NCBI RefSeq assembly: GCF_001457615.1
Contig: NZ_LN831024.1
Span: 1,800,001-1,832,000 of the forward strand
DNA from: Pseudomonas aeruginosa
Lineage (GTDB): Bacteria; Pseudomonadota; Gammaproteobacteria; Pseudomonadales; Pseudomonadaceae
Reading direction: 5' to 3'
Length of the DNA: 32,000 nucleotides
A program made the position numbers and the translations under genes. This document shows, piece after piece, positions 2,453-20,782 of this stretch (position 1 is its first letter; every line of letters begins with the position of its first letter). The notes beneath the pieces are model-generated. The model was not told the origin of the DNA and ran no database searches. It saw only the letters and a list, made by a program, of their open reading frames with translations.

Positions 2453-2475
2453 TTCCAGGGATACCGCGCGAAATG

Positions 2476-2511
2476 AAAAAGGCGCGCCGGTCGAAACCGG
2501 CGCGCCTTTTT
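2476..2511. terminator. Bidirectional intrinsic terminator between convergent hrpA and phoA
   Basis: Perfect 11-bp stem GGCGCGCCGGT (2481-2491) / ACCGGCGCGCC (2496-2506) with loop CGAA. It is flanked by AAAAA (2476-2480) and TTTTT (2507-2511), so it can act on both strands. Confidence 0.75.
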
Positions 2512-2524
2512 CGTTCTGGTCCGA

Positions 2525-3955
2525 TCAGTCGCGCAGGTTCAGTGCGCGACGGATGGTGAAGAACAGGTCGGTCTGGTCGGTCAGGCCGGTGACATTGGCG
2601 GCCTGCGGGCCGTAGGCGGCGATGCGCAACTGGGTGCCGGTGTGCTCCTGGGAGCCTTCCTCGGAGTTGCCGTAGCTGATCGCCAGCGGCGCGCCGTCCT
2701 TGGTCGTGAGCAGTTGGGTCAGCCCCGGCGCGGCGGTTTCCGGCGGGATGATCTGGCTGGAGTGGGCGTGGTCGGCGGTGACGATCACCAGGGTCTCGCC
2801 ATCGGCCTTGGCGAAGGCCAGGGCCTTCTGCACGGCTTCGTCGAGGTCGACGGTCTCGCCGATCTGGCCGCACGGATTCGCGGCGTGGTCCTGCTTGTCG
2901 ATGGACGCGCCCTCGACCTGCAGGAAGAAGCCGTTCGGATTGTCCTTCAGCAGCTCGATGGCCTTGCTGGTCATTTGCGCCAGGGTCGGGATGTCGGCGG
3001 TGCGCTTCGGGTTCGCCTCGCAGCTCACCGCCGGCTGGTTCAGGTTGCCGTGGTAGGTGGCGGTCGGACCGAGCCAGCGCACCGGCATGTTGCCCGGCGC
3101 GAACAGGCCGATCAGCGGCTGCTTCTGGTTGGCGCGGCGCACGGCTTTCAGCTCGTCGAGGTTCTCGACGATCCGGTAGCCGCGGGCTTCGGCCTGGGCG
3201 CGGAGGGTCTTGCCGGCATAGCGGCCAGCCTTGGCGGTTTCCGCGAAGGTCGCGGCGCCGCCGCCGAGAACCACGTCAGGGCGGGTCTTCAGCCACTGCT
3301 CGGTGATCGAGCCGGCGCCGCCGTTCTCCAGGGCATTGCTCGGGCACTGCTTGCTGGTGGCCTCGGGACCGTAGCACTTGCGAGCGGTGACGTGGGCGAG
3401 CAGGGCGGCGGGGGTGGCGTCCTGCAGCTCGGCGGTGGAGACGTTGCCGGTGGCCTTGCCGTTGAGCTTGGCCAGCTCCAGCAGGTTGCGGTGCGGCTGT
3501 TCGTGGATATCCACGCCGATCGCGCCGTTGTACGACTTGACCCCGGTGGTCCAGGCGGTGGCGGAGGCGGCGGAATCGGTCACGTAGTCCGGCAGGCCGC
3601 TGTCCTTGTGCAGGGAGTAGTGGGTGTACTGGCCGGTCAGCGGCAGCGCATCGATACCCTTGAAGTAGCCGCCCGCGCCGCGCGCGTAGTTGCGCGCCAC
3701 GGTGATCTCGGAGTCGCCCATGCCGTCGCCGATCAGCAGGATCACGTTCTTCGCCTTCTTCTTCGACAGCGACTGCTTCAGGGCCTGGGTCAGGTCCTGC
3801 TCGACGCGCCGTGCGCCGCCGTACTCGCTGAGTTCGCCACGGGCCTGGCGGTTGAACAGCGACGGATCGTCCTGGCGCGCCTGGGCCGGCAAGGCGCTGC
3901 CGAGCACGGCCATGGAGACGGCAAGAGAGAGGGCGAGGGGATAACCTGGGGTCAT
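2525..3955 (-). CDS. phoA: Periplasmic alkaline phosphatase
   Basis: 476-aa ORF with signal peptide [26 protein letters not shown]. It has the GDGMGDS metal-site motif and the [12 protein letters not shown] active-site serine motif of alkaline phosphatases. A Pho-box-like site lies ~80 bp upstream. Confidence 0.93.
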
Positions 3956-6901: not shown

Positions 6902-7717
6902 ATGACGCCGAACCCCCGCCATTGGGCCCGCGAGCTGTGGCAGCGCTCCCGCGATCGCGGCTTGCAGACCCACATCGATGTATTGGTCGATGCCACCGGG
7001 CTGGACGACTATCCCTTGCTCGCCGAGCATGCGCGGCAAAGCGATCCTCCAGCGCTGTTCAAATTGCTGGAGCAAACCCCGGAGGCCGCCCTGGCCGACG
7101 AGGGCCCGCTGCTGCTGCGCCTGGAAGACGGCCACGCGGCCTGGCTGGACGAACTGCTCGAACGCATCGACTGCCGCCGCCACCTGATGCTCCTGTTCAG
7201 CCCCTGGCCGTTGCCGCGCCTGGGCGAGCACCTGCGCAGCTGCACCCAGGCCGAGTGGAACCAGGGCCGTTCCAGCGGCGTACTGCGTTTCTACGAGCCG
7301 GGCCTGTTCATGGCCGTCAGCGACATGCTCGATCCCCGGCAGAGCCGTTACCTGCATGCCCCGGTTTCCAGCTGGCACTGGCTGGACCGCGACGGCCGGC
7401 CGAGGGCGCTGGCCGGTCATTACCAGGCCCATGAGACGCCGCCGCTGCAAGCGGCCCTCCGCCTGGAAGCGCACCAGGTCGCTGCCTTGCGCGCCTGGAG
7501 CGAGGCCGAAGCCTACCGCCGCGAATACTTCGTGCTGCCCCGCGAGCATGGCCTGGGCAGCCAGGAAAGCCTGCTCCAGCATCTGGTCCAGGCGCACCTG
7601 GCCGCCGACCGCCAGGGCTTGCAGGACTTCGACCAGCGCGATGCCTTCGTCGCCCAATGGCTACGCGAACAGACCCCCGGCCCCGGCTTTTCCCCGGCGG
7701 GAACGAGTCGCGCATGA
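6902..7717 (+). CDS. DUF4123-like T6SS effector adaptor/chaperone (Tap/Tec type)
   Basis: 271 aa, starting 9 bp after the vgrG stop. The N-terminal region (VLVDATGLDDYPLLAEH..ALFKLLEQTPEAALADEGPLLLRLE) resembles DUF4123 proteins. Its position between vgrG and an effector/immunity set is the canonical adaptor slot. Its stop overlaps the next start (ATGA at 7714-7717). Confidence 0.72.
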   Translation: MTPNPRHWARELWQRSRDRGLQTHIDVLVDATGLDDYPLLAEHARQSDPPALFKLLEQTPEAALADEGPLLLRLEDGHAAWLDELLERIDCRRHLMLLFSPWPLPRLGEHLRSCTQAEWNQGRSSGVLRFYEPGLFMAVSDMLDPRQSRYLHAPVSSWHWLDRDGRPRALAGHYQAHETPPLQAALRLEAHQVAALRAWSEAEAYRREYFVLPREHGLGSQESLLQHLVQAHLAADRQGLQDFDQRDAFVAQWLREQTPGPGFSPAGTSRA

Positions 7718-8235
7718 ACGGGCGCGGCATCGGCCTTCCCGCCCTGCTTCCGGGGCCCCTGCTGGCCACGGGCTGCCAGAGCGGGCCGGACATGCTGGCG
7801 GCGCCGGTGATGGGTTACAACCATACGTCCGCGGCGATCAATTGGTTTTCGGTGAATGGGGCGGGTGGACCTCGTTTAGGCCCTTATCAGGGGGATGGTA
7901 GCCAGGTTTGTTGCGGAGTGATTCCAAAGAAGTGGAATCCAAATTTGAAAGCTGTCGTGGAATGGGAGAAAGATCCCAAACCGCACGCCGCTATAAGGCG
8001 AGATAGATATGGACGGCTGGATAAAGATGATTACTTGAGACATGCCTCAAGCTACACCCGACACAAGATGATCGTGGATATACCTAGATATAGTGAAAAA
8101 ATATGCCTGTTGCAGGAGCATTTCCTCCCGTGCGACCAGGTCGCGGTCTCAACAACCTATTACAGCCAGGGGCATCCAGAGTATCCAGATAGAAAGTATT
8201 TTCAGAAGAGAGAGCCTTCATGCAAAAGCTCTTGA
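7714..8235 (+). CDS. Tli1-like periplasmic lipoprotein, copy 1 (DUF3304-like, putative Tle1 immunity)
   Basis: 173 aa from ATG 7714. The signal peptide carries a lipobox-like LLATGC. The mature part is roughly 70-75% identical by eye to copy 3. The 5' ~110 nt are GC-rich and the remainder is AT-rich, giving a chimeric appearance. Confidence 0.75.
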   Translation: MNGRGIGLPALLPGPLLATGCQSGPDMLAAPVMGYNHTSAAINWFSVNGAGGPRLGPYQGDGSQVCCGVIPKKWNPNLKAVVEWEKDPKPHAAIRRDRYGRLDKDDYLRHASSYTRHKMIVDIPRYSEKICLLQEHFLPCDQVAVSTTYYSQGHPEYPDRKYFQKREPSCKSS

Positions 8236-8769
8236 ATGCAAAGGGGTTAAGGACACCTGATTGGCTGATTGCTTTACTGATAGGTTTTTTGTTTTTAAAA
8301 GCGTGCCAGGCAGGCCCTGATATGGTGTCTACTCCTATCGGAGGATACAACCATACTTCGGCGGCTATTAACAGATTCAGTGTAAATGGTGCTGGCGGAT
8401 TAAACCTTGGTCCATTTCAGGGGGAGCAGGGCAGGTATGTTGTGGTGTCGTTCCTAGAGTTTGGAAGTCGGGCTTGAAGGCAACCGTATAGTGGGGGGTG
8501 GTTCCTGAGCCAGGGGCTTATAAAGACTGGCCGGAAAGATATTTTCAGATGGCTGGAGAAAACGTATGAGAGAGCATGGGCTCTTGTATATTCGTCATAA
8601 GGAAGCCGTCGATATACCTCCTTGTGATAGTAAGGAGATTTGTTCGCTAAAAATACACTTTCTTCCATGTGATAAGGTTGCTACTTCAGCTGCCTGTTAT
8701 ACGCCGTTTCATCCTGAATATCCGAATAAAGGTTGCTTTGATATGAGGGGTATGTCATGCAGAAGTTGA
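8220..8769 (+). pseudogene. Decayed Tli1-like lipoprotein gene, copy 2 (at least 2 frameshifts plus an in-frame stop)
   Basis: Homology to copies 1 and 3 runs through three frames. The first segment (8220-~8430) gives a signal peptide with lipobox LKAC plus GYNHTSAAINRFSVNGAGGLNLGPFQGE. The next frame reads GAGQVCCGVVPRVWKSGLKATV and ends at TAG 8489-8491. The third segment is ORF 8566-8769 (YIRHKEAVDIPPCDSKEICSLKIHFLPCDKVATSAACY). Confidence 0.8.
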
Positions 8770-9311
8770 TGAGCTTGATCTGTGTGGGAAATAAAAATTC
8801 CATTGGGCTGGTGGTTTTTCTCAGCACCTTCTTTGGGCTGGTGGCATGCCAGGCTGGGCATGAAGTGCTGTCTGCACCTATCATGGGTTACAACCATACT
8901 CCGGCGGCGATTAACGAATTTACGGTGAATGGTGCTGGCGGACCGAACTTAGGTCCTTATCAGGGAGATGGTAGTCAAGTTTGTTGTGGGGTAATTCCAA
9001 AGAGATGGAATCCAAATTTGAAAGTTATTGTGGAATGGGAGAAGGATCCAAATCCCCGTGCCGTTATAAAACGAGATAAATATGGGCGGTTGGATGAGAG
9101 TGATTATTTGAGGCATGCCTCAAGTTACACCCGTCACAAGGCGACTGTGAATGTGCCTAGGTATGATGAAAAGGTGTGCTTGCTGCAGGTGCACTTCTTG
9201 CCGTGTGACGAGGTGGCTGTTTCTACGACTTGTTATGGGCCGAATCATCCAAAATATCCTGATAAGGCCTATTTCGAGATGAGAAAGTCAACGATATGTC
9301 CGGCTAACTGA
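8757..9311 (+). CDS. tli1: Tli1-like periplasmic lipoprotein, copy 3 (DUF3304-like; likely cognate immunity, directly upstream of tle1)
   Basis: 184 aa, intact. The signal peptide has lipobox GLVAC. RBS GAGGGG lies 7 nt upstream of the ATG. The gene ends 14 bp before the effector start. Confidence 0.75.
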   Translation: MQKLMSLICVGNKNSIGLVVFLSTFFGLVACQAGHEVLSAPIMGYNHTPAAINEFTVNGAGGPNLGPYQGDGSQVCCGVIPKRWNPNLKVIVEWEKDPNPRAVIKRDKYGRLDESDYLRHASSYTRHKATVNVPRYDEKVCLLQVHFLPCDEVAVSTTCYGPNHPKYPDKAYFEMRKSTICPAN

Positions 9312-9325
9312 AGGCAGGTGGGAAG

Positions 9326-11974
9326 ATGCCTAATTTTGGATTTCATATAGCACCCACCCATCCTGTGGCAGGGCGCCTGATTTATGATTCTAAAAAATTA
9401 TCAGAAAATATATTAAAGCAGCAGAGCGATGAACGGGTTTTTTCAAGGGCGCAAGAGCAAAAAAGGCTTTCTGAAGGTGACGTAGTCGGTGGTGCGCCTT
9501 GCTGTAAAGCTATCCATATTACACTTGGTTTTGATGGGACTAATAATAACGATAAGGCTGATGGTTCATCGGTTTCTCCATCTTGCAGTAATGTCGCTAG
9601 GCTAATTCATGCAAGTATTGGGAGCGGCGATGATATAAACAGTAGGGGGATTTTTAAGTACTATTGCCCAGGTGTGGGTACGGTGTTTCCGGATATTAAA
9701 GAATTTACGCCTTCAAACATGGGATTAATTGGTGCTGAGGGAGGCGAAAATCGAATAAACTGGGGGCTGGTTCAGTTAGTTGATGCTCTTTTCTATACTT
9801 TATTAAAAAGTAGGCTTAAACTAAATGAGGTTCAGGGCCTAGTAGAAGAAATGTCCACTAACTGGACCGTCAGTACGCTCACTGGTGGTTTATTGGAAAA
9901 CGGCGAGAAAAAACGCCGAACTGCCTTGGAGCCAAAACTCAAGGAACTGGAAGAAAAGCTTCGACAGCGTCAGAACTCTGGACAGAAACCGCATATCCTG
10001 GCCATGCGCTTGTATGTCTACGGATTCTCCCGTGGGGCGGCAGAAGCACGAGCCTTTGCCAACTGGCTGCAGGAGCTAACCCGGGTCAGCGATGCCGATG
10101 GTCGGGTGGAATATCGCTTTGCCGGTCTGCCGATCTCGATCGAGTTCCTCGGCCTTTTCGATACCGTGGCGGCAGTTGGGCTGGCGGATAGTGCGCCGTT
10201 CGCTGCCGGGCATATGGATTGGGCCGATGACACCATGCGCCTGCCCGATGAGGCCCTCTCCCAGTGCCTGCCGACCATCCTGCCGGAAGACTGTTCTTTT
10301 CTGAAACGTTGCGTGCATCTGGTTTCCTGTCATGAGCAGCGTGCCAGTTTTCCACTCGATTCGATCCGCCGTCGTGACATGGATGCCAACGGACGTCGGA
10401 CGGGGCCCTCCTGCTACCGGAAGTGGACGGTGGAATATGCTTATCCTGGTGTTCACTCGGATGTTGGTGGCGGTTATGGCGTCGGCAACCAGGGGAAAGC
10501 TGTGGGAGGTTCGGAATTTCTACTATCCCAGATAGCGTTGCAGCATATGTATGCGGAGGCTTTCGAGGCAGGTGCTCCTTTGCAAGTTCCAGCACCTGCC
10601 GTCCATCCAGACTTTCATGAAGAGTGGCGGGTAATGGTGCCCAAGATTGAAGCGGAGTTCAGCGTCTCCGAAGAACTCGCCACCCGTTTCAACGCCTGGC
10701 AGGCCCAGGCCAAGGCCGGCCCCCTGGAAGAGGTGATCCGTCGCGAGACCGCGTTGATCACCGCCTGGCGCATCGACCGCTATGCCGGCGGGCTGCGCAA
10801 CAAGGCGTTCTTCGCCAATGTCCCGCCGGACATGCCGGAAGCCCAGCAGAAGGCCTGGGAGGCCCTGCACAAACGGCGTAGCCGGGAGTACGCGGCCGCC
10901 CAGCAGGGCAAGCCGCTCCCGCCGATGAGCGCCGCCGAACAGGCGGAGTGGGATCGCAACGTGGCGCTGATCGGCGGCGAGGACAAACTGCGCGACCTGC
11001 GGGTGGAGAAGCAGTTCGATCCGCCGCTGGACCAGCGCCAACTACTCGGCGCCGCCGCCGAGTTCGCCCATGACTACAAGGGCGACTGGGGCGTGCTCGA
11101 CGACGGCATGACGGTGGGCGGAGTGATCGACCTGCTGCTCGGCGGCACCGTATTCCTGATCAACGAGGAAGACGAAGCCGAGGAATACAGCCAGATCCAC
11201 CGCGACGGCAGCGCGCGCTACCACCAGTTGTTCAGCGCTCCCGACCGGGTGGTGCCGGGCCAGGAAAAGCTGGTGGCGCTGTTCGACGAACAGGTGCACG
11301 ACTCCCGCGCCTGGTTCATGAACACTTCGGCGATAGGCCCGCGAGAACCCTTCACCGACTACTTCCGCTATCGCCTGGTGCATTTCGACAACGAGTCGAA
11401 CAAGCGGCTCTCGGTACTGGCCACCGCCGGGCGGGTGGTAGGCGTAGGGGTGATGCTGGCCAGCGTCGGCCTCAGCGTCAAGCGTCGCGATCCGCGGATG
11501 CTGCTCGGGCTGTTCCTGCCATCGCTGGCGCGTCCGCTGCTGAGCGGCAAGGTCGGCCTGCCGGAGATCAGCGCCTTCGACCCGCTGACCGGGATCGCCT
11601 TGCCGATGGTCGGCGGGGCGGCGCTGGACAACCTGCGGGCCTTCACCCGCGAGCCTGGCGACAAGGTCGAGCAGATCGGCCAGTTGCCGCCACCGCCGCC
11701 GCTGGCGGTCGCGGCGGTGCAATCGCCCGCATTGCAGCAGGTGCTGCTGGCTCAGCAGACCGTGGAGGCGCTCAACGCGCGCGACCTGGGCAGCCTGGCC
11801 GGGCTGGTGGCCAAGGCCGAACTCACCCAGGCGCCCGCGGCGGCGACGCCGGCCTGGCTCGCCGAGGCGAAGCAGGCCTTGCAGGACATGGGTACGGAGC
11901 AGGCGCAACCGCCGGACCCCGGCTCGGCGCCGGGCTGGCTGCAGCGCGGCAAGGACCTGATGGAATCGCTTTGA
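9326..11974 (+). CDS. tle1: T6SS phospholipase effector, Tle1 family (DUF2235 alpha/beta hydrolase); PAO1 PA3290 by synteny
   Basis: 882 aa. It has the FDGTNN motif (res 69-74) and the GxSxG lipase motif GFSRG (res 233-237; Ser codon 10028-10030), followed by LGLFDTVAAVG and YPGVHSDVGGGY segments typical of DUF2235. It is the last gene of the vgrG-adaptor-immunity string. Confidence 0.88.
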   Translation: MPNFGFHIAPTHPVAGRLIYDSKKLSENILKQQSDERVFSRAQEQKRLSEGDVVGGAPCCKAIHITLGFDGTNNNDKADGSSVSPSCSNVARLIHASIGSGDDINSRGIFKYYCPGVGTVFPDIKEFTPSNMGLIGAEGGENRINWGLVQLVDALFYTLLKSRLKLNEVQGLVEEMSTNWTVSTLTGGLLENGEKKRRTALEPKLKELEEKLRQRQNSGQKPHILAMRLYVYGFSRGAAEARAFANWLQELTRVSDADGRVEYRFAGLPISIEFLGLFDTVAAVGLADSAPFAAGHMDWADDTMRLPDEALSQCLPTILPEDCSFLKRCVHLVSCHEQRASFPLDSIRRRDMDANGRRTGPSCYRKWTVEYAYPGVHSDVGGGYGVGNQGKAVGGSEFLLSQIALQHMYAEAFEAGAPLQVPAPAVHPDFHEEWRVMVPKIEAEFSVSEELATRFNAWQAQAKAGPLEEVIRRETALITAWRIDRYAGGLRNKAFFANVPPDMPEAQQKAWEALHKRRSREYAAAQQGKPLPPMSAAEQAEWDRNVALIGGEDKLRDLRVEKQFDPPLDQRQLLGAAAEFAHDYKGDWGVLDDGMTVGGVIDLLLGGTVFLINEEDEAEEYSQIHRDGSARYHQLFSAPDRVVPGQEKLVALFDEQVHDSRAWFMNTSAIGPREPFTDYFRYRLVHFDNESNKRLSVLATAGRVVGVGVMLASVGLSVKRRDPRMLLGLFLPSLARPLLSGKVGLPEISAFDPLTGIALPMVGGAALDNLRAFTREPGDKVEQIGQLPPPPPLAVAAVQSPALQQVLLAQQTVEALNARDLGSLAGLVAKAELTQAPAAATPAWLAEAKQALQDMGTEQAQPPDPGSAPGWLQRGKDLMESL

Positions 11975-12538: not shown

Positions 12539-13009
12539 ATGCGCCAGGCCCTGCTGATCGTCGACGTGCAACCCTGTTTCGCCCCGCCGGACTGGCTGCT
12601 GGAAGGCATCGGCCAACTGCTCGGGCGGATGCCCTCGGTGGCCAGCGTCGAGCGCCATGACGAATCCCGTACGCCGTTCCAGCGCCAGCTCGGCTGGCGA
12701 CCGCCGCTCGACGATGCCTGCCTGGTGGCGGCCGACCGGGTCTTCGTCAAGCATGGCTACCTGCCGACGGCGGAACTCGTCGACCATCTGCGTGCGCTGC
12801 GAGCGGAACGGGTGCTGGTATGCGGCATCCAGGCCGACACCTGCGTGCTCGCCGCCGGCTTCGCCCTGTTCGACGCCGGCCTGCAACCGACCCTGATCGG
12901 CGACCTGGTGCTCGGCTCCTCGCTGGATCGCTCGGGGGAGCTGGGTGTGCGCCTGTGGAAGCATCATTTCGGCCAGGTCGTCAGCCTGGCCGAGGTGCTG
13001 GCGGATTGA
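12539..13009 (+). CDS. Isochorismatase-family (cysteine) hydrolase
   Basis: The N-terminus MRQALLIVDVQPCF is typical for the family, and a VLVCGIQADTCVLA segment carries the conserved Cys. An alternative upstream ATG at 12506 cannot be excluded. Confidence 0.7.
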   Translation: MRQALLIVDVQPCFAPPDWLLEGIGQLLGRMPSVASVERHDESRTPFQRQLGWRPPLDDACLVAADRVFVKHGYLPTAELVDHLRALRAERVLVCGIQADTCVLAAGFALFDAGLQPTLIGDLVLGSSLDRSGELGVRLWKHHFGQVVSLAEVLAD

Positions 13010-13012
13010 GGC

Positions 13013-13528
13013 TCAGTGGGGCCGGCTGAGCAGCGCGACCGTGGCCTCGGCATTCATCATCCGCGCTGCCGCCAGCGGCGTCAGCCCGGCGGCGTCCTGG
13101 GCGTCACGACGGGCGCCGTGGGCCAGCAGGCTGGCGGCGACCTCGGCCTGGTTGAACATGGCCGCCATCATCAGTGCGGTCTTGCCGTCGGCCGAGGCGC
13201 CCTCGACGTCGGCGCCGCCGGCGAGGAGCAGTTCGACCATCGCCAGGTCGCCCTTGAACGCAGCGCCGGCCAGCGGTGTCTGCCCGGCCAGGTTGCGCAG
13301 GTCCGGGTCGGCCTTGTAGGCCAGCAGCAGGCGTACCGTGTCGGCGTGGCCATGGTAGCTGGCCAGCATCAGCAGGCTGTCGCCCTTGTGGTTGCGCAGG
13401 TTCGGCGGCAGGCCCTGTTGCAGCAGTTGCTCGAGGCGCTGGCTGTTGCCCTGGCGGGCCAGGTCGAACAGCTGGTGGACGAACTCCTGGGTTTCCATAT
13501 CCAGTTCTGGACGAGGGCTATCGGTCAT
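13013..13528 (-). CDS. Ankyrin-repeat protein
   Basis: 171 aa from ATG 13528. It has repeated ankyrin consensus blocks (GDSLLMLASYHGHADTVRLLLAYKADPDL, GQTPLAGAAFKGDLAMVELLLAGGADVE, GKTALMMAAMFNQAEVAASLLAHGA). The upstream 169 codons of the tracked ORF look noncoding. Confidence 0.85.
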   Translation of the reverse strand: MTDSPRPELDMETQEFVHQLFDLARQGNSQRLEQLLQQGLPPNLRNHKGDSLLMLASYHGHADTVRLLLAYKADPDLRNLAGQTPLAGAAFKGDLAMVELLLAGGADVEGASADGKTALMMAAMFNQAEVAASLLAHGARRDAQDAAGLTPLAAARMMNAEATVALLSRPH

Positions 13529-14018
13529 GGGGCTGCTTCCTTGTGAATACCGGGTTTGCCGAATGATAGGCGGCCTTGCCGAGGTGGGCTGTTGAGCATT
13601 GCCTATGGGGCGGGTTGGCAAATTCAATCGATGGTTGGGGTGGGAAGGTGCCAGCCTGCTGTGACCGGAAGCCGGCCTGGTTGCGTCGTCTTTACAGTTC
13701 GATACGGATATCGGTGGCGAAAACGGGGAAAATAAACCGATCGTGCGCCTATCGGCTGTGCCCGGCGCGCACTCTGGAATATCCTTGGCGCCTTCGATAC
13801 CACTGAGCGGTGCGCGCGCTTGCCGAAGCGAGGCGGTGGCACACTGCGCAATGGCCGACCTTGCCCGGGCCCTGTACGAAAGCGCGTCGCCAACGTCTTT
13901 TCGTAGAGCGCCCGGCATCGCCGCGAGCGAACCCGTTTCCGGTGCCGGCCCCAGGCGGGCACCGCTATGCCTAATCGGCCCCGTTCGACGGCGGCCCAGC
14001 GAGAGAAGAGGAACAACT

Positions 14019-15140
14019 GTGCATAAAGCCGTCATCAGCGGAACCGGTCTTTATACTCCGCCCTACAGCATCTCCAACGATGAGCTGGTGGAGAGCTTCA
14101 ATACCTTCGTGCGCCAGTACAACGACCAGCACGCCGAGGCCATCGCCAAGGGCGAACTGGAGGCGCTGGCCGAGTCCAGCTCGGCGTTCATCGAGAAGGC
14201 GTCCGGCATCAAGAGCCGCTTCGTGATGAACAAGGAAGGCATCCTCGACCCGCAGCGCATGGTTCCGTACCTTCCCGAGCGCAGCAACGACGAGTGGTCG
14301 ATCCTCTGCGAGATGGCCGTGGCCGCCGCCAGGGAGGCGCTGCAGCGTGCCGGCCGCAGCGCCGCCGACATCGACGGGGTGATCGTCGCCTGCTCCAACC
14401 TGCAGCGCGCCTACCCGGCGATCGCGGTGGAGGTGCAGGCCGCGCTGGGCATCCAGGGCTACGGCTACGACATGAACGTGGCCTGCTCCTCGGCCACCTT
14501 CGGTATCCAGGCCGCCACCACCGCGATCCAGACCGGCCAGGCGCGGGCGATCCTGATGGTCAACCCGGAGATCTGCACCGGCCACCTGAACTTCCGCGAC
14601 CGCGACAGCCACTTCATCTTCGGCGACGCCTGCACCGCGGTGATCGTCGAGCGCGCCGACCTGGCCGTGTCGAAGCACCAGTTCGACATCGTCAGCACCA
14701 GGCTGCTGACCCAGTTCTCCAACAACATCCGCAACAACTTCGGCTTCCTCAACCGCGCCGACGAGAGCGGTATCGGCAAGCGCGACAAGCTGTTCGTCCA
14801 GGAAGGCCGCAAGGTGTTCAAGGATGTCTGCCCGATGGTCGCCGAGCTGATCGGCGAGCACCTGGCGGCCAATGAAATCCAGGTCGCCGAGGTCAAGCGC
14901 TTCTGGCTGCACCAGGCCAACCTGAACATGAACCTGCTGATCACCCGCAAGCTGCTCGGCCGCGACGCCGAGGCGCACGAGGCGCCGGTGATCCTCGACA
15001 GCTACGCGAATACCAGTTCCGCCGGCTCGGTGATCGCCCTGCACAAGCACCAGGACGACCTGCCCAGCGGCGCCATCGGGGTGCTCAGCTCGTTCGGCGC
15101 CGGTTACTCGATCGGTAGCGTGATCCTGCGTAAACACTGA
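14019..15140 (+). CDS. FabH-like beta-ketoacyl-ACP synthase III (PAO1 PA3286-type)
   Basis: GTG 14019 is preceded by GAGAAGAGGAA. The protein is 373 aa with the KAS III Cys-His-Asn triad contexts NVACSSATFG, WLHQANLNM and YANTSSAGS. The 92-codon 5' extension of the tracked ORF is rejected. Confidence 0.88.
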   Translation: MHKAVISGTGLYTPPYSISNDELVESFNTFVRQYNDQHAEAIAKGELEALAESSSAFIEKASGIKSRFVMNKEGILDPQRMVPYLPERSNDEWSILCEMAVAAAREALQRAGRSAADIDGVIVACSNLQRAYPAIAVEVQAALGIQGYGYDMNVACSSATFGIQAATTAIQTGQARAILMVNPEICTGHLNFRDRDSHFIFGDACTAVIVERADLAVSKHQFDIVSTRLLTQFSNNIRNNFGFLNRADESGIGKRDKLFVQEGRKVFKDVCPMVAELIGEHLAANEIQVAEVKRFWLHQANLNMNLLITRKLLGRDAEAHEAPVILDSYANTSSAGSVIALHKHQDDLPSGAIGVLSSFGAGYSIGSVILRKH

Positions 15141-15142
15141 TC

Positions 15143-15754
15143 GTGGCGGCGCCTACCGACGCCGAGCTGCTGCCGCGCCTGCTGGCCGGCGAGCAGCGAG
15201 CCTTCCGCGAGCTGGTTGGCGCCTACCAGGGCGCCATGCGGGCCGTGGCCTGGGCGATCATCGGCAGATCGCATACCGAGGAAGTGGTGCAGGACGCCTG
15301 GCTCGCGGCGGTTCGCGGGCTGGACGGGTTCCAGGGGCGTTCGAGCCTGAAGACCTGGCTGCTGACCATTACCGCCAATACCGCCAAGAGCCGCTTGCGC
15401 CAGGTTCGCCGGGAAGTTTTCCTCGACGACCTGCCGGGGCCCCATGGTACGGTGGATGACCAGCGCTTTGCCGCCGACGGTCACTGGAGCCAGCCGCCGC
15501 ACGCCTGGCACGAGGATTCGCCGGAAGCCCTGCTCGCCGAGGGCGAACTGCGCGATTGCCTGGACAAGACCCTCAACGGTCTGTCCGAGCTGCAGCGCAG
15601 CGTGCTGACCCTGCGCGAACGCCAGGGCTTGGAGCTGGAGGAAATCCGTGATCTCCTGGATATCACGCTTTCCAATGTCCGGGTGCTGCTGCATCGCGCC
15701 CGCCTGAAGGTCTTCGCCACCCTGGAGCATTTCGAGGAGACCGGCCAATGCTGA
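15143..15754 (+). CDS. ECF-type RNA polymerase sigma-70 family factor
   Basis: 203 aa. Region 2 is seen in EEVVQDAWLAAVRGL and region 4 (HTH) in LSELQRSVLTLRERQGLELEEIRDLLDITLSNVRVLLHRAR. It starts 2 nt after the KAS III stop. Confidence 0.88.
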   Translation: MAAPTDAELLPRLLAGEQRAFRELVGAYQGAMRAVAWAIIGRSHTEEVVQDAWLAAVRGLDGFQGRSSLKTWLLTITANTAKSRLRQVRREVFLDDLPGPHGTVDDQRFAADGHWSQPPHAWHEDSPEALLAEGELRDCLDKTLNGLSELQRSVLTLRERQGLELEEIRDLLDITLSNVRVLLHRARLKVFATLEHFEETGQC

Positions 15755-15987
15755 GTTGCAAGGAACTGGTCGCCCGGTCCAGCGACTTTCTCGATGGGCA
15801 ACTGGACTTCCGCGGACAACTGGCGGTGCGCAGCCACCTGCTCATGTGCCGGCATTGCCGGCGCTTCATCCGCCAGATGCGCCTGACCCAGGCGACCGTG
15901 CGCCATCTGCCGGAAGGGCCGGGGCCGGAACTCGACCGTCTGGCCGCGCATCTCTCCGAATTGCGCAAGGACGCCGCGCGGCGCTGA
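15748..15987 (+). CDS. Small cytoplasmic zinc-binding (ZAS-type) anti-sigma factor
   Basis: 79 aa. Its ATG overlaps the sigma gene's stop (ATGCTGA). It has the HxxxCxxC motif HLLMCRHC and no transmembrane segment. Confidence 0.78.
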   Translation: MLSCKELVARSSDFLDGQLDFRGQLAVRSHLLMCRHCRRFIRQMRLTQATVRHLPEGPGPELDRLAAHLSELRKDAARR

Positions 15988-16009
15988 GCCGGGGTACCCT
16001 CGACACCAA

Positions 16010-16043
16010 GCCGCCGCCCGCGATTCGTGGGCGGCGGCTTTTT
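16010..16043 (+). terminator. Intrinsic terminator closing the KAS III-sigma-anti-sigma operon
   Basis: 10-bp stem GCCGCCGCCC (16010-16019) / GGGCGGCGGC (16029-16038) followed by TTTTT (16039-16043). Confidence 0.75.
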
Positions 16044-16141
16044 CGTTTCCGCTATCCGGCGTGGGCGAACCGAACCCGGCCTGGCATGGGTGGCTCTCCC
16101 TTCCGCGTGACGAGGTCGAGGAGTGTGGCTGGGCTTGGCGG

Positions 16142-16251
16142 ATATCGCTGCGCGATATGCACCCTACGGAGGGGCGGCAATCCGTTTCGCTGGGCGAGCA
16201 TCCGAAGTTGAGGAGAACGCCTGGGACCTGGCGAATATCGCCGACCGATAT
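16142..16251. repeat. Pair of related palindromes in the precursor-gene leader (possible operator pair)
   Basis: IR1 is ATATCGC-tgc-GCGATAT (16142-16158). IR2 is ATATCG-ccgac-CGATAT (16235-16251). The flanks also match (TGGCG[G/A]ATATCGC). The centres are 93 bp apart. Confidence 0.6.
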
Positions 16252-16392
16252 TTCTCCAGCAGGGGCAATCCCTGAGTTCAGGCAAAGGGACGGGAAATTT
16301 TTTTTGACTCCGCTGTAACGCCGCCAGGGGTGCTCCGTCCATTGGAGCGAGGACGCCATACCGGCGCCCGCTACCAACTTCAGGAGTTACCC

Positions 16393-16707
16393 ATGAAAAA
16401 GATTTCCCTCGCTTCTTCCGTCGTCGGCGCTGCTCTGCTCGGCGTAGCCAGTGTCGGCGCGCATGCCGCGCAGAATCCCTTCGCCGTGCAGGAGCTGAGC
16501 AGCGGCTACAGCGTGGCTGCCGCCGAGAAAGCCAAGGAAGGTTCCTGCGGCGAGGCCAAGTGCGGTGCCGACAAGGGCAAGCGCGAAGCCTCCAAGGCAG
16601 GTCATGAAGGCAGCTGCGGTGCGGATCGCAAGGCCAAGGAAGGTTCCTGCGGTGGCGAGAAGAAGGCCGGCGAAGGCAACTGCGGCGCCGACAAGAAGAA
16701 GTCGTAA
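16393..16707 (+). CDS. Secreted Cys-repeat RiPP precursor candidate (HvfA/bufferin-like metallophore precursor)
   Basis: ATG 16393 is preceded by AGGAG (16382-16386). The protein is 104 aa with Sec signal MKKISLASSVVGAALLGVASVGAHA|AQ. The C-terminal half carries five CG motifs (EGSCG, EAKCG, EGSCG, EGSCG, EGNCG) in a Lys/Glu/Gly-rich sequence. It lies immediately upstream of a DUF692 gene. Confidence 0.8.
   Translation: MKKISLASSVVGAALLGVASVGAHAAQNPFAVQELSSGYSVAAAEKAKEGSCGEAKCGADKGKREASKAGHEGSCGADRKAKEGSCGGEKKAGEGNCGADKKKS
16531..16652 (+). repeat. Internal 20-bp perfect direct repeat inside the precursor core
   Basis: GCCAAGGAAGGTTCCTGCGG occurs at 16531-16550 and again at 16633-16652. It encodes AKEGSCG both times. 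Confidence 0.9.
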
Positions 16708-16725
16708 GGCCTGAGGAGACGGACC

Positions 16726-17580
16726 ATGCAACGGGAATTCGTCAGCGGCGCCGGGCTAGGCCTGCGTCGCGCGCTGCTGGAGCCGCTCGGCGCCGGCGAT
16801 GAGGTCCGGGTCGACTTCCTCGAGGTCGCCCCGGAGAACTGGATCGGCATCGGCGGCCGTCTCGGCCGCCAGTTCCGCGAGCTGACCGAGCGCCTGCCGT
16901 TCCTCTGCCATGGTCTGTCTCTCAACCTCGGCGGCTACGCCCCGCTGGACATGTCGTTGCTGCGCGCGATCAAGGGTTTCATCGAGCAGCATGACATCCG
17001 TGCCTACAGCGAGCACCTGTCGGCCTGCGCCGACGACGGCCAGCTCTACGACCTGATGCCGCTACCGTTCAGCGACGAATCGGTGCGCCGGGTCGCCGAA
17101 CGGGTCCGGGTGGTACAGGACGTCCTCGAGCGGCCGTTGATCGTCGAGAACGTCTCGGCGTATGCGCGCTTGCCGGGCGAGCTGGAAGAGGTCGATTTCG
17201 TCCGCGCGGTACTGGAGGAAGCCGATTGCCAATTGCTGCTGGACGTCAACAACGTCTACGTCAACGCCTGCAACTTCGGTTTCGACGCACACGCCTACAT
17301 CGCCGCGATGCCCAGCCGGAGGATCGCCTACCTGCACATGGCCGGGCACGACGAACAGGGCGCCAGCCTGAAGATCGACACCCATGGCGCGCCGGTCTGC
17401 GATCCGGTCTGGGAACTGCTGGCACATGCCTATGCCTGCCATGGCGAACGCCCGACGCTGCTGGAGCGCGATTTCAACCTCCCGCCACTGAGCGAGCTGT
17501 ATGCCGAAACCGATCGCATCCGCGAGCTGCAGCGGCGCAGCGGTGAAGCGCAACTGCGCAGCCTGGGGTACGGCACATGA
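16726..17580 (+). CDS. DUF692 / MNIO (multinuclear non-heme iron oxidase) family enzyme, MbnB/BufB/HvfB-like
   Basis: 284 aa with the family-typical blocks GLGLRR, FLEVAPENW, CHGLSLNLGG, YSEHLS, IVENVSAY, LLLDVNNVYVNACN, YLHMAGH, IDTHGAPV and PTLLERDFNLP. Confidence 0.88.
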   Translation: MQREFVSGAGLGLRRALLEPLGAGDEVRVDFLEVAPENWIGIGGRLGRQFRELTERLPFLCHGLSLNLGGYAPLDMSLLRAIKGFIEQHDIRAYSEHLSACADDGQLYDLMPLPFSDESVRRVAERVRVVQDVLERPLIVENVSAYARLPGELEEVDFVRAVLEEADCQLLLDVNNVYVNACNFGFDAHAYIAAMPSRRIAYLHMAGHDEQGASLKIDTHGAPVCDPVWELLAHAYACHGERPTLLERDFNLPPLSELYAETDRIRELQRRSGEAQLRSLGYGT

Positions 17581-18311
17581 ACCACACGACCTTGCAACGG
17601 CGTTTCGCCGCACGTATCCGCGATCCGCAGCAGGCCTTGCCGCCCGGCATCGCGACGGAGCGCATGGCGATCTACGAGGAACTGTTCTTCAACAACCTGG
17701 ACGGTTTCATCAGTAGCGGTTTCCCGGTCCTGCGCCAGTTGTTCGACGAGCCGCGCTGGCATCGCCTGGTGCGTGCCTTCATGCGCGAGCATCGCTGCCG
17801 CACACCGTACTTCAGCCAATTGGGCGAGGAGTTCATCGGCTGGCTGCAGGACGGCTACCGTGCGGAGGAGGGCGATCCGCCCTTCCTGCTGGAGCTGGCT
17901 CACTACGAGTGGGTCGAGCTGGCCCTGTCGCTGGCCGAGGCGCCTGTCGAGACGCTGCCGCAGGCCTGGTCGTGGTCGCCACTGGCCTGGCCGCTGGCCT
18001 ATCGCTGGCCGGTCCATCGCCTGGGGCCGAGCCATCGGCCGATGGAGCCGCCGGCCGAGCCGACCTGCCTGCTGGTCTGGCGCGATCCGGCGGAGCGGGT
18101 GCGCTTCCTGCACCTGTCGCCATTCGCCTATCGCCTCGCGCAGCGCCTGAGCGAGGAGGGCGAGGCGCCGGTGGCGCTGCTGCCGTTGTTGCGCGAGTTG
18201 GCCGGAAGCTGCGGCCTGAGCGCCGACGTGGAGTATTTCGAAAATGCCTTCGCCTTGCTGGAGGACTGGCACGCCCAGGGCATCCTCATGGGCGAGGGCG
18301 CTCTGGAGTGA
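17577..18311 (+). CDS. DUF2063 protein, MNIO partner (BufC/HvfC/MbnC-analogous)
   Basis: 244 aa. Its ATG overlaps the DUF692 stop (ATGA at 17577-17580). The N-terminal LQRRFAARIRDP...ERMAIYEELFFNNLDGFISSGFPVLRQL segment is typical of DUF2063. Confidence 0.8.
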   Translation: MNHTTLQRRFAARIRDPQQALPPGIATERMAIYEELFFNNLDGFISSGFPVLRQLFDEPRWHRLVRAFMREHRCRTPYFSQLGEEFIGWLQDGYRAEEGDPPFLLELAHYEWVELALSLAEAPVETLPQAWSWSPLAWPLAYRWPVHRLGPSHRPMEPPAEPTCLLVWRDPAERVRFLHLSPFAYRLAQRLSEEGEAPVALLPLLRELAGSCGLSADVEYFENAFALLEDWHAQGILMGEGALE

Positions 18312-18904
18312 TGATGAAGACTGTCTTCCTGCGTTTACAGCATGCCCTCGACGTCACCCGTCGAGCGGATTTCCTCGCCCCGCTGGCGCTGCGCCTGTAC
18401 CTGGCGCCGGTGTTCTGGATGGCCGGCAGCCAGAAGCTGGCGGACATGCCGGCCACCATCGAGTGGTTCGGCAATCCCGACTGGGGACTCGGCCTGCCGT
18501 TTCCCGAACTGCTGGCCTGGCTCGCCGCGCTGAGCGAGGCCGGTGGCGCCGTGTTGCTGTTGTGCGGCCTGGCCGTGCGCTGGATCAGCCTGCCGCTGAT
18601 GGTGACCATGCTGGTAGCGATCTTCGCCGTGCACTGGCCGAACGGCTGGCAGGCGATCGCCGATCCGTCCGCGCCGTTCGCCAACGCCCAGGTGCTGGAG
18701 GCTGGCGAGAAGCTGGCGCGAGCCCGGGAAATCCTGCGCGAATACGGCAACTACGACTGGCTGACGTCGAGCGGAAGCTTCGCCATCGTCAACAACGGCA
18801 TCGAGTTCGCCGCGACCTACCTGGTGATGTTGCTCGCGCTGTTCTTCGGCGGCGCCGGCAAGTGGCTTTCTGCTGACTTCTGGATTGCTCGAAAATTGCG
18901 CTGA
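18311..18904 (+). CDS. DoxX-family integral membrane protein
   Basis: 197 aa from ATG 18311, which shares its A with the upstream TGA. It has several hydrophobic helices (LALRLYLAPVFWMAGSQKL, LAWLAALSEAGGAVLLLCGLAV, LPLMVTMLVAIFAVHW). The long 5' extension of the tracked ORF overlaps the DUF2063 gene and is rejected. Confidence 0.8.
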   Translation: MMKTVFLRLQHALDVTRRADFLAPLALRLYLAPVFWMAGSQKLADMPATIEWFGNPDWGLGLPFPELLAWLAALSEAGGAVLLLCGLAVRWISLPLMVTMLVAIFAVHWPNGWQAIADPSAPFANAQVLEAGEKLARAREILREYGNYDWLTSSGSFAIVNNGIEFAATYLVMLLALFFGGAGKWLSADFWIARKLR

Positions 18905-18930
18905 GATTTCTACCCATATCGAATAACCCG

Positions 18931-18960
18931 AAAGGCCCGTAGTAGAGGGCTTTTCGCTTT
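18931..18960 (+). terminator. Intrinsic terminator after the DoxX gene
   Basis: Stem AAAGGCCC (18931-18938) / GGGCTTTT (18947-18954) with an 8-nt loop and a T-rich tail. Confidence 0.6.
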
Positions 18961-18986
18961 ATTCGCATTGGAGATAAAAAGTTCCT

Positions 18987-19004
18987 CTGTAATGAAACAT
19001 TTAT
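18987..19004 (+). promoter_or_regulatory. Pho-box-like site upstream of oprO
   Basis: CTGTAAT-GAAA-CATTTAT (7+4+7 layout) lies ~150 bp upstream of ATG 19151. Confidence 0.45.
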
Positions 19005-19150
19005 CTCCATGCAATTTGGCTGCAATCTGCCATCGCCAAGATTCCCCCCAACACAAAGGGGCCGCCTTACGGCCAGCGCGGAACAAGGGGCGCGCTGTAG
19101 CCAGGCACTCGCGTGTTGCCAATGCACACACCATTAAGGGGAAATCTTCG

Positions 19151-20467
19151 ATGATCCGTAAGCACTCGCTCGGCTTCGTTGCCAGCGCTCTGGCTCTGGC
19201 CGTATCTGCCCAGGCGTTCGCCGGCACCGTGACCACCGACGGCGCCGATATCGTGATCAAGACCAAGGGCGGCCTCGAAGTCGCCACCACCGACAAGGAA
19301 TTCAGCTTCAAGCTGGGCGGTCGCCTGCAGGCCGACTACAGCCGTTTCGACGGTTTCTATACCAAGAATGGCAACACCGCCGACGCCGCCTACTTCCGCC
19401 GCGCCTTCATCGAACTCGGCGGAACCGCATACAAGGACTGGAAATACCAGATCAACTTCGACCTGTCGCACAACACCGGCAGCTCCGACAACGGCTATTT
19501 CGACGAAGCTTCGGTCACCTACACCGGCTTCAACCCGGTCAACCTGAAGTTCGGTCGCTTCGACCCCGACTTCGGCCTGGAAAAGGCCACCAGCTCCAAG
19601 TGGGTGACCGCTCCCGAGCGTAACGCCGCCTACGAACTGGCCGACTGGATCAACACCCACCAGGACGGCATGGGCGCCCAGGTCAACTCGACCCTCGCCG
19701 ACATGGCCTACCTGTCCGCCGGCGTATCCGCCAAGGACGCCGACGACAGCGACGGCGACAGCGTCAAGCAGTTCAACTTCCGCGGCGTGTTCGCGCCGAT
19801 GCACGAAGCCGGCAATGTTCTGCATGTCGGCGTGAACTATGCCTACCGCGACCTCGACGACACCGCCTTCGACTCGCGCATCCGTCCGCGCCTGGGCATG
19901 CGCGGCATCGCCACCAGCGGCGGCAACGACGCCGGTGACAACGGCAACCGCGCGACCTTCGGCGGTGTCTCCAACTCGCCGGCCGGTTCCTACAAGGACG
20001 ATAGCGTCTGGGGCCTGGAAGGCGCCTGGGCGATGGGCCCGTTCTCGGCCCAGGCCGAATACCTGGCACGCAAGCTGAAGGCCGATGACAACGCCTACAA
20101 GGACATCAAGGCCAAGGGTTACTACGCGCAACTGGCCTACACCCTGACCGGCGAGTCCCGCCAGTACAAGCTGGAAGGTGCCAAGTTCGACTCCGTCAAG
20201 CCGGAAAACAAGGAAATCGGCGCCTGGGAAGTGTTCTACCGCTACGACAACATCAAGGTGGAAGACGACAACGTGGTCGCCGATACCGCCACTCGCGAAG
20301 TCGGCGACACCAAGGCCAAGGCCCACAACCTGGGCGTGAACTGGTACGTCAACGATGCGGTGAAGATCAGCGCGGCCTACGTCAAGGCGAAGACCGACAA
20401 GATCACCAACAACAATGGCGACGATGACGGCGACGGCTTCGTGACCCGTTTGCAGTACGTGTTCTAA
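19151..20467 (+). CDS. oprO: Pyrophosphate/polyphosphate-selective outer-membrane porin OprO
   Basis: 438 aa. Signal peptide [24 protein letters not shown], then [39 protein letters not shown] and a C-terminal ...LQYVF. It is a tandem paralog of the next gene and was recognised as P. aeruginosa OprO. Confidence 0.9.
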
Positions 20468-20497
20468 GAAGCGACAACGATCTGCTCCTGTTTTCGG

Positions 20498-20520
20498 CCT
20501 CGCTCCGGCGAGGTCTTTTT
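20498..20520 (+). terminator. Intrinsic terminator after oprO
   Basis: Stem CCTCGC / GCGAGG with loop TCCG, followed by TCTTTTT. Confidence 0.65.
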
Positions 20521-20782
20521 AATCGCTTCCTTACCCGGTTGTGGCGATGTTGGCAGCCTGCAACCGGGTCTTTCTTTCGTTACAGGTCTACCCGCAGGTA
20601 CTGGCAGGAATATCCGAAAGCCAGACGGTTATCGGCAGAAACTCTTGGTTTTCATTGCAGTCATGCAATCTTCGCAAGGTTGCCGCAATATATGAAACAA
20701 ACTGTTACATCTGTCGCCCGGACCTGATGCCTCTAGGCCTGCGCCCTTATCCGACGGCCTCATCCAGGCGCTATCCGGCTGC

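Follow-up and report, generated by a model that had tools for sequence, protein, structure and literature searches.

Which product does a four-gene operon of Pseudomonas aeruginosa make downstream of a sigma/anti-sigma gene pair, and which signal turns it on? The question is raised by a locus within 32,000 nucleotides (nt) of contig NZ_LN831024.1 (positions 1,800,001 to 1,832,000, forward strand), the whole stretch of DNA analysed here and called the window below. In this locus we recognise the P. aeruginosa Fro system (froR, froI and froABCD; PA3285-PA3281 / PA14_21550-21600), because the window proteins match P. aeruginosa sequences exactly, on at least 1000 contigs, with the precursor corresponding to UniProt Q9HYV9_PSEAE (PA3284), and the fro literature assigns PA14_21550 to froR, PA14_21560 to froI and PA14_21570 to PA14_21600 to froABCD. 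Published qPCR primers for froA were directed at PA14_21570 (strain PA14) and PA3284 (PAO1). Of the six genes, five are numbered in PAO1, as PA3285-PA3281, and froI has no number there. Fro has been studied since 2013 and 2019. We consider it likely that Fro is a two-unit system in which the sigma factor FroR, released by oxidants, drives an HvfABCX-type cluster for a ribosomally synthesised and post-translationally modified peptide (RiPP), making a copper-binding FroA peptide.

Genes were read from the open reading frame (ORF) listing and the sequence, and coordinates are positions in the window. The genes fall into two transcription units, fabH3-froR-froI, ended by a strong terminator, and then froABCD, followed by oprO:

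14019-15140, + strand: fabH3 (PA3286), annotated beta-ketoacyl-ACP synthase III (KAS III), 373 amino acids (aa); NCBIfam NF005703, 671 bits
15143-15754, + strand: froR (PA3285 / PA14_21550), extracytoplasmic function (ECF) sigma factor, 203 aa; Pfam Sigma70_r2 and r4_2, TIGR02937 at 82 bits (cut-off 43)
15748-15987, + strand: froI (PA14_21560), soluble ZAS anti-sigma factor, 79 aa; zf-HC2 and NF052368
16393-16707, + strand: froA (PA3284 / PA14_21570), precursor, 104 aa; NF050137 (HvfA repeat domain)
16726-17580, + strand: froB (PA3283), HvfB-family multinuclear non-heme iron oxidase (MNIO)/DUF692, 284 aa; NF003818 and PF05114
17577-18311, + strand: froC (PA3282), HvfC/DUF2063 partner protein (PME1, with RRE), 244 aa; NF050145, DUF2063 and NGO1945_C
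18308 (GTG) or 18311 (ATG) to 18904, + strand: froD (PA3281), HvfX/DoxX membrane protein, 197-198 aa; NF050144 and DoxX
19151-20467, + strand: oprO (PA3280), phosphate/pyrophosphate porin; Pfam Porin_O_P, 410 bits

Within each unit the genes are packed tightly. Only 2 nt separate the end of fabH3 from the start of froR, and froR and froI overlap by 7 nt, the froI ATG sitting within the last froR codons (ATGCTGA) in a translationally coupled arrangement. The froA stop lies 18 nt before the froB start, the froB stop (17578-17580) and froC start (17577) form an ATGA overlap, and either froD start (GTG at 18308 or ATG at 18311) overlaps the froC TGA at 18309-18311. The flanking genes are fabH3 upstream, with tle1 and vgrG farther away on that side, and oprO and oprP on the downstream side; their families were called with NCBIfam and Pfam, and the arrangement fits the PAO1 map. 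The gene positions, junctions, terminator and five cysteine motifs given in the initial annotation, which had been made from the sequence alone, were borne out at every coordinate.

To place the operon among known RiPP systems, we compared its products with family models, using NCBIfam curated cut-offs and Pfam. FroB scored 406 bits against the HvfB model NF003818 (cut-off 360, E 6e-122) and 329 bits against PF05114 (MbnB_TglH_ChrH), but stayed under the cut-offs for BufB (NF050167, 259 bits against 310) and MbnB (TIGR04159, 40 bits against 325). FroC passed the HvfC model NF050145 with 282 bits (cut-off 142), matched Pfam DUF2063 and NGO1945_C and aligned with PDB 3DEE at E 2e-15, while FroD passed the HvfX model NF050144 with 234 bits (cut-off 80), reached 83 bits for DoxX and contained hydrophobic segments. 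FroA scored 32.1 bits against the HvfA repeat domain NF050137 (cut-off 19.5) and had no Pfam match at E <= 0.01, DUF2282 included. The initial annotation had named the families MNIO/DUF692, DUF2063, DoxX, ECF sigma and ZAS anti-sigma, and these assignments held, with matches well outside what chance would give, including DUF692 and DUF2063 for the products of 16726-18311.

In the alignment of FroB with PDB 3BWW (E 6e-75), the motifs HGLS, SEHLS, VEN, DVNN, H.AGHD, DTHG and ERDF were conserved, as were residues H62, H97, E141, D173/N176, H204/H208/D209, D218/H220 and E247/D249. Individual residues among these may sit at the iron sites known from MbnB structures. In addition, R14-R15 and D249-F250 of FroB occupy the positions that in FonB hold the substrate-gating arginine pair, the catalytic Asp249 and the phenylalanine of the Lys-Cys group. 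Given that four Hvf models were passed, the BufB and MbnB cut-offs were missed, DUF2282 was absent and these FroB residues matched, froABCD is, on sequence grounds, an HvfABCX / EGxCG "captophorin"-type RiPP cluster, and neither a bufferin/gig nor a methanobactin cluster. The gig/bufferin membership included in the initial annotation therefore had to be given up: FroA carries no DUF2282 domain, FroB falls short of the BufB cut-off and the anti-sigma factor is of the ZAS kind rather than NrsF. Methanobactin membership was likewise rejected, on the MbnB score and on a Sec signal in place of a leader peptide.

As a separate observation on FroB, the substitution N142S in PA3283 (codon 142, window positions 17149-17151) has been reported in cinnamaldehyde-selected multidrug-resistant mutants (PMC9774640) and falls within V140-E141-N142, a conserved MNIO motif.

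The classification is correct but already known, as the locus, the Hvf family and the regulation are all public. PGAP names some FroB copies "HvfB family MNIO-type RiPP peptide maturase" and some copies of Q9HYV9, a "Secreted protein" in UniProt, "HvfA family ... RiPP metallophore", and P. aeruginosa has been named in RiPP papers among the carriers of hvf or MNIO-PME1 operons. The fro and RiPP papers examined did not cite each other, and a link between them may exist in literature beyond that searched. The words DUF692, MNIO, DoxX, RiPP and copper were absent from the main fro paper (version dated September 2026), and nowhere in the RiPP papers and their supplements was P. aeruginosa related to fro, flow or hypochlorite. 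What the present analysis adds is the link between Fro and captophorins, the analysis of the promoter and of the ZAS residues, and corrections to annotation.

From its sequence, FroA is predicted to be an exported precursor. It begins with MKK, a hydrophobic stretch and AHA|A, a signal-like N-terminus whose only hydrophobic segment reaches a Kyte-Doolittle hydropathy over 19 residues (KD19) of 1.87 at residues 4-22. Residues 1-25 form a predicted Sec-type signal, followed by a 79-aa core with an NPFAxQELSSGY motif. The five cysteines (52, 57, 75, 86 and 97) each lie in an ExxCG pentamer, in order EGSCG, EAKCG, EGSCG, EGSCG and EGNCG. The initial reading of this gene as encoding a Sec-signal, cysteine-repeat RiPP precursor of the HvfA type thus agrees with the repeat-domain match and the five pentamers. 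By hydropathy, FroA was the only product with an N-terminal hydrophobic segment alone, and FroB, FroC, FroR and FroI had none. A 2023 review described the four Fro proteins as uncharacterised and predicted a cytoplasmic location for FroA and FroB and an inner-membrane one for FroC and FroD. Our analysis suggests a different topology, in which FroA is exported, FroB and FroC, having no transmembrane segment, are soluble, and only FroD resides in the membrane.

To view FroA against its relatives, we scanned one genome per species and collected 80 loci encoding FroB relatives, which divide into a close Pseudomonas group (L001-L018) and 62 distant loci. In most of the 80, an ExxCG precursor preceded the MNIO gene, and the order precursor-MNIO-partner was kept among the related loci with tight spacing or overlaps. 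In a census of about 450 pentamers, EGKCG was the commonest (350) and EGSCG second (51). FroA stands at the lysine-poor end of the precursor family. This conservation bears on whether FroA is a RiPP precursor at all, or an unmodified, low-complexity surface or secreted protein concerned with host-cell interaction or modulation of the type III secretion system, with FroBCD unrelated to it. Such a role would be in keeping with the first description of NTHI1441 as a secreted invasion factor, with a transposon insertion mapped to PA3284 that raised exoS-lux 6-fold, and with reports that fro is needed for gut and lung colonisation. Against it stand the preserved gene order, the ExxCG precursors ahead of the MNIO gene and the fact that all homologues tested to date are modified, and we regard it as extremely improbable.

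We next consider how the RiPP unit would be read. The elements between and after the fro genes are as follows:

about 16008-16040, + strand: intrinsic terminator after froI, 15-bp stem with 12 GC pairs, 3-nt loop and T-rich tail, TTTTCGTTTCC
16142-16158 and 16235-16251, no strand assigned: two 17-bp palindromes ATATCG-N5-CGATAT (2 matches against 0.00 expected by chance)
16296-16341, + strand: predicted ECF-type froA promoter, -35 element TGTAAC at 16314-16319, 16-nt spacer, -10 element CGTC at 16336-16339
16346-16372, + strand: hairpin predicted for the 5' end of froA mRNA, minimum free energy (MFE) -15.8 kcal/mol, z = -2.3
18929-18956, + strand: weak terminator-like hairpin between froD and oprO, 10 pairs of which 6 are GC, 8-nt loop, poor T tail

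The hairpin at about 16008-16040, whose stem is an inverted repeat (I2) with 94% complementarity, is, judged from its sequence, the end of the fabH3-froR-froI transcript. A sigma-70 promoter scan of 13000-20600 gave no site, and phylogenetic footprinting then yielded the ECF-type promoter. When the 160 nt before froA in the window were aligned with the corresponding regions of 18 relatives (19 sequences), the conserved parts were an A/T tract, CTGTAAC and CGTC(T/C)A, and the 16-nt spacer, measured in 17 of the 19 sequences, was invariant. In all 18 close loci the pattern GTAA(C/T)-N15-17-NGTCNA preceded the precursor gene by about 80 nt, and it stood at that position in none of the 62 distant ones, which points to a conserved FroR-type promoter, TGTAAC-N16-CGTC, from which froABCD would be read.

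Both froR and froI were present in 11 of the 18 close loci, and one further locus, L006, had froI alone at a contig edge. As some promoter-bearing loci thus have no adjacent sigma gene, control in trans is implied. The 62 distant loci contained no FroR or FroI homologue, apart from one weak, distant match in L059. Adjacency of an ECF sigma gene as a general feature of HvfB loci was accordingly rejected, the regulators being confined to the close loci bar L059 and the promoter to the 18.

The FroR-type site occurred once in the 32-kb window, with no second copy upstream of fabH3, froR or oprO. This single site indicates that froR and froI lack a FroR-type promoter of their own, in agreement with the finding that froR overexpression leaves fabH3-lacZ activity unchanged (PMC3875570); the same work reported fabH3, froR and froI as an operon induced by SigX overexpression. 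The absence of a site before oprO likewise favours transcription continuing from froD as the source of FroR-dependent oprO and oprP expression, and we infer that read-through of the weak, probably leaky hairpin at 18929-18956 best accounts for their induction. Among loci L001-L016, a porin match followed the froD match in 14 of 16 (not in L006 or L009).

Upstream of oprO, at 18975-18996 on the + strand, we also noted CTGTAATGAAACATTTATCTCC. It resembles a Pho box, which would fit phosphate control of oprO besides read-through.

The two ATATCG-N5-CGATAT palindromes lie 93 bp apart within 28-nt direct repeats (family D1), in some 250 nt of sequence that separate the froI terminator from the froA promoter and are missing in most close relatives, where the froI-froA gap is much shorter. 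They may be operator sites for some regulator. The hairpin at the 5' end of the froA mRNA is a tentative prediction: by single-sequence folding most relatives fold at the same position, with differing stem sequences and modest z-scores, and RNAalifold on a MAFFT alignment of the froA 5' untranslated region gave no consensus structure, so that covariation was not established.

Around the 80 loci, recurrent neighbour clusters, identified by eye, comprised a large helicase-like protein, a lipoprotein, fabH3 and an endonuclease III-like protein, a picture of ordinary synteny; no Msr-like or metal-resistance cluster was evident among them. In L025, L036, L069 and L071, all without froR and froI and three of them labelled Alcanivorax, a fabH3-like KAS III gene (about 2240-3500 in these loci) stood directly before the hvf-like operon. 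The presence of fabH3 upstream in loci without the regulators may reflect function or merely inherited gene order.

The trigger of the system would be read by FroI. FroI passed the anti-sigma model NF052368 (57 bits, cut-off 50) and zf-HC2 (37 bits, cut-off 22), has no transmembrane segment by hydropathy and contains H30-x3-C34-x2-C37 together with C4, a complete ZAS ligand set. ZAS domains bind zinc. All four ligands were among the residues invariant in 11 homologues, in 10 of which the ATG(C/T)TGA junction with the sigma stop codon was also kept. The main fro paper stressed, in its proposal on sensing, how densely methionine and cysteine occur in FroI. Across the same homologues, Met33 and Met44 vary, and the combination of invariant ligands with variable methionines favours the zinc-thiolate centre as the oxidant sensor.

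These data also bear on two entries in the record. In reviews, PA3285 figures among the ECF sigma factors that lack an anti-sigma factor, and one review equates PA3285 with PA14_21540. The latter is fabH3, and both statements clash with the sequence and with PMC3875570; PA3285 has an anti-sigma factor, FroI. The second entry is the only Rfam match in the window:

15758-16039, + strand: RF01670 "Pseudomonas sRNA P17", cmscan 328.8 bits, full-length model 1-282

What it covers is the coding sequence of froI and the terminator behind it. The froI ORF shows 51-68% protein identity among homologues, is coupled to froR, matches two protein-family models above cut-off and carries a public anti-sigma annotation, and P17 as a true non-coding RNA was rejected on these grounds. 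Given this coding evidence, "P17" is most simply the 3' part of the fabH3-froR-froI mRNA, and RF01670 probably describes part of an mRNA, not a non-coding RNA.

Published work supplies the inducing signals. Expression of fro rises with overexpressed froR and falls with overexpressed froI. Flow induces fro by replenishing hydrogen peroxide (H2O2), and hypochlorous acid (HOCl) and taurine chloramine do so at micromolar doses. FroR is required for the HOCl induction of froABCD, oprO, oprP, msrB, msrP and msrQ, and for HOCl tolerance. The initial annotation had suggested a cytoplasmic redox, thiol or metal trigger for a system with both product and regulation uncharacterised in this species. Of these suggestions, the redox or thiol trigger fits the published HOCl and H2O2 induction, and the product may still be called uncharacterised; the regulation, by contrast, has been published as that of Fro, and in the literature searched we found no support for a metal trigger apart from the zinc-starvation result described below.

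Taking these observations together, we propose the following sequence of events. In the resting state FroI would hold FroR. HOCl, chloramines or flow-replenished H2O2 would react with the zinc centre of FroI (Cys4/His30/Cys34/Cys37) and so free FroR, which would transcribe froABCD, with read-through raising oprO and oprP. In the cytoplasm, FroC would bind the FroA precursor, and the iron enzyme FroB would turn the ExxCG cysteines into 5-thiooxazoles. FroA would then be exported by Sec and its signal peptide cleaved, and the modified FroA would bind Cu(I) in the periplasm, limiting copper- and oxidant-driven damage, with FroD (DoxX) as a membrane accessory protein. The modification, export and Cu(I) binding of FroA are drawn from its homology to HvfABC, NgoABC, FonABC and the bufferins. 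5-Thiooxazoles (-4 Da per Cys, absorbance at about 305 nm) and copper binding have been shown for the Haemophilus, Neisseria and Fontimonas homologues, and the oxazolone/thioamide chemistry of HvfA cited in the initial annotation has since been revised to 5-thiooxazole.

Several points weigh against this proposal. FroA scored 29 against the HvfA equivalog model, far below the cut-off of 95, and by its scores is a member of the HvfA-type family, not an HvfA equivalog. Lysine precedes cysteine in one of its five motifs, the rest having serine or asparagine, and only the first two motifs (Cys52 and Cys57) form a tandem pair, leaving three (Cys75, Cys86 and Cys97) isolated. A single-repeat FonA peptide was not modified in vitro, and the substrate rules of FonBC call for pentamers that open with glutamate and end in a small residue, with alanine, arginine or threonine tolerated at position 3 (10.1101/2025.11.18.689057 / PMC13097082). 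The FroA pentamers fit these rules, and from the tolerance of FonBC together with the single-repeat failure, modification of FroA appears plausible, with full modification of the three isolated motifs uncertain. FroA modification, export and copper binding, as well as the sensing chemistry of FroI, are argued from homology only. H2O2 is a fro inducer according to one group and not according to another, and the published HOCl phenotype of the delta-froR mutant may stem from the msr genes rather than from froABCD. Finally, when the literature was searched in full text with every PAO1 and PA14 locus tag, no study of fro with copper or gold emerged, nor any report of its induction by either metal.

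The last point also bears on the reading of the locus as a metal-stress, gig-like operon for metal resistance, with copper, gold or a different metal acting on the sigma/anti-sigma pair to turn it on. In Caulobacter, Cupriavidus and Legionella, metals induce the bufferin and gig operons, which adjoin ECF sigma genes, the zinc-binding nature of ZAS domains is established, and PA3282-84 rose 4.1-5.0x in a zinc-starved znuA mutant, among nine genes induced at least 4-fold without a Zur site. This zinc result, the only metal-related induction found, reflects starvation and not excess, and the published fro inducers are flow/H2O2 and HOCl. No evidence was found of copper or gold induction, as cited in the initial annotation for the gig cluster, and with the DUF2282, BufB and NrsF results above, we judge a metal-switched operon very unlikely.

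A closer competitor is a periplasmic oxidant sink, in which modified FroA would scavenge HOCl and chloramines in the manner of a thiol, either sacrificially or in recyclable form, and FroD would re-reduce it with quinol electrons, copper being secondary. The known inducers are oxidants rather than metals, fro is co-regulated with msrB and msrPQ, and the 5-thiooxazole sulfur is reactive, being readily alkylated by iodoacetamide. Some EGKCG clusters hold oxidored_molybd and ferric-reductase genes, which we take to be the MsrP and MsrQ families. A DoxX homologue of Mycobacterium tuberculosis acts in thiol and oxidative-stress defence, and a Brucella HOCl-responsive ECF pair controls a methionine-rich peptide together with an MsrPQ homologue. 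However, oxidant reactivity or recycling of captophorins is so far hypothetical, the relatives demonstrably bind Cu(I) and protect against copper, and no Msr-like cluster, judged by eye, recurred near the 80 related loci, making the oxidant sink unlikely as the primary function compared with the copper-binding FroA peptide.

We also entertain, tentatively and as a rather doubtful extension, a combined reading in which the FroI zinc-thiolate senses zinc loss as well as HOCl and H2O2, and thiooxazole-bearing FroA and FroD form a quinone-coupled copper/oxidant buffer co-deployed with MsrPQ. Zinc loss from FroI would, on this hypothesis, explain the Zur-independent induction of PA3282-84. If true, it would supply the missing biochemical function of the "flow-sensing" fro operon and make captophorins oxidative-burst defences, not solely metal-stress defences.

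The assignment matters to two fields. Among the responses of P. aeruginosa to flow and to HOCl from neutrophils, fro is one of the most strongly induced, it is reported to be needed in animal colonisation models, and recognising froABCD as an HvfABCX-type cluster gives its study a concrete biochemical hypothesis. The RiPP field in turn gains a genetically tractable pathogen with known inducing signals and regulators. For the record, PA3285 has an anti-sigma factor, P17 corresponds to the coding sequence of that factor, and FroA is predicted to be exported and FroC soluble.

Elsewhere in the window, a low-GC stretch at 7657-9311 on the + strand (GC 0.44-0.46) contains three tandem paralogous small ORFs directly before a Tle1-type type VI secretion system (T6SS) phospholipase gene (9326-11974), the middle one split in two (8220-8477 and 8566-8769). 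Immediately upstream come a vgrG gene (4826-6892) and a DUF4123 gene (6902-7717). The small ORFs have the appearance of an array of immunity genes in which one copy has decayed.

Among known systems, methanobactin biosynthesis by MbnABC resembles fro in that an MNIO and a partner protein turn cysteines of a ribosomal peptide into a copper-binding heterocycle. However, its product is an oxazolone/thioamide rather than a 5-thiooxazole, and its precursor carries a leader peptide where FroA has a Sec signal.

On the regulatory side, the pairs RsrA-SigR of Streptomyces, ChrR-RpoE of Rhodobacter and MseR/NMB2145-sigmaE of Neisseria meningitidis share with FroI an H-x3-C-x2-C motif with an N-terminal fourth ligand, an anti-sigma gene translationally coupled to the sigma gene and an oxidant trigger. 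RsrA is a soluble single-domain protein, like FroI, and the Neisseria sigmaE/MseR pair reportedly adjoins DUF692 and DUF2063 genes and controls msrAB. Unlike the other ZAS anti-sigma factors compared, FroI comprises only 79 aa, and its zinc content and oxidation chemistry are predicted. In Brucella, BcrS/AbcS-bcrXQP (PMC10151825) is a HOCl-responsive ECF pair that drives an MsrPQ-type reductase and a small peptide with many oxidisable residues, reminiscent of fro, but the peptide is methionine-rich and not a RiPP, the anti-sigma factor is cleaved proteolytically and there is no MNIO.

The bufferin Buf1/Buf2 and gig clusters of Caulobacter vibrioides and Cupriavidus metallidurans (PMC11626156, PMC12452194) have the same four-gene precursor-MNIO-DUF2063-DoxX layout as fro, together with a Sec-exported precursor, 5-thiooxazole chemistry, a nearby ECF sigma gene and MNIOs in the same sequence-similarity cluster. 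By contrast, their precursors are DUF2282 or 6/12-Cys domain proteins where FroA has EGxCG repeats, the Caulobacter anti-sigma factor is NrsF where fro has a soluble ZAS protein, and they are induced by metals where fro is induced by oxidants.

Closer to fro are the captophorin systems FonABC (fontiphorin) and NgoABC (gonophorin) (10.1101/2025.11.18.689057 / PMC13097082), in which an MNIO and a PME1 partner act on EGKCG-type repeats. FroB shares the Arg-Arg and Asp-Phe pairs of the Lys-Cys group to which FonB belongs, although FroA is poor in Lys-Cys, and the chemistry of these systems, a 5-thiooxazole with absorbance near 305 nm and copper binding, would be expected for FroA. The fon cluster consists only of the MNIO, partner and precursor genes, and its regulation has not been studied, whereas that of fro is known.

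HvfABCX of nontypeable Haemophilus influenzae, which makes oxazolin (PMC11252979, 10.64898/2026.07.17.739211), comprises the same four families, with the precursor-MNIO-DUF2063 order of hvfABC retained in fro. Like FroA, HvfA is a precursor of about 100 aa that carries a Sec signal and repeats of the ExxCG type, but it has six modified cysteines, tandem AEGKCGEGKCG repeats and lysine before cysteine, compared with the five cysteines of FroA, mostly preceded by serine or asparagine and mostly in isolated motifs. Unlike Haemophilus hvf, fro has its sigma and anti-sigma genes directly adjacent. Expression of hvf has been linked to oxidative stress, with reference to work on the ECF sigma factor RpoE2 and hypochlorite, which parallels the oxidant induction of fro, and both systems are linked to infection.

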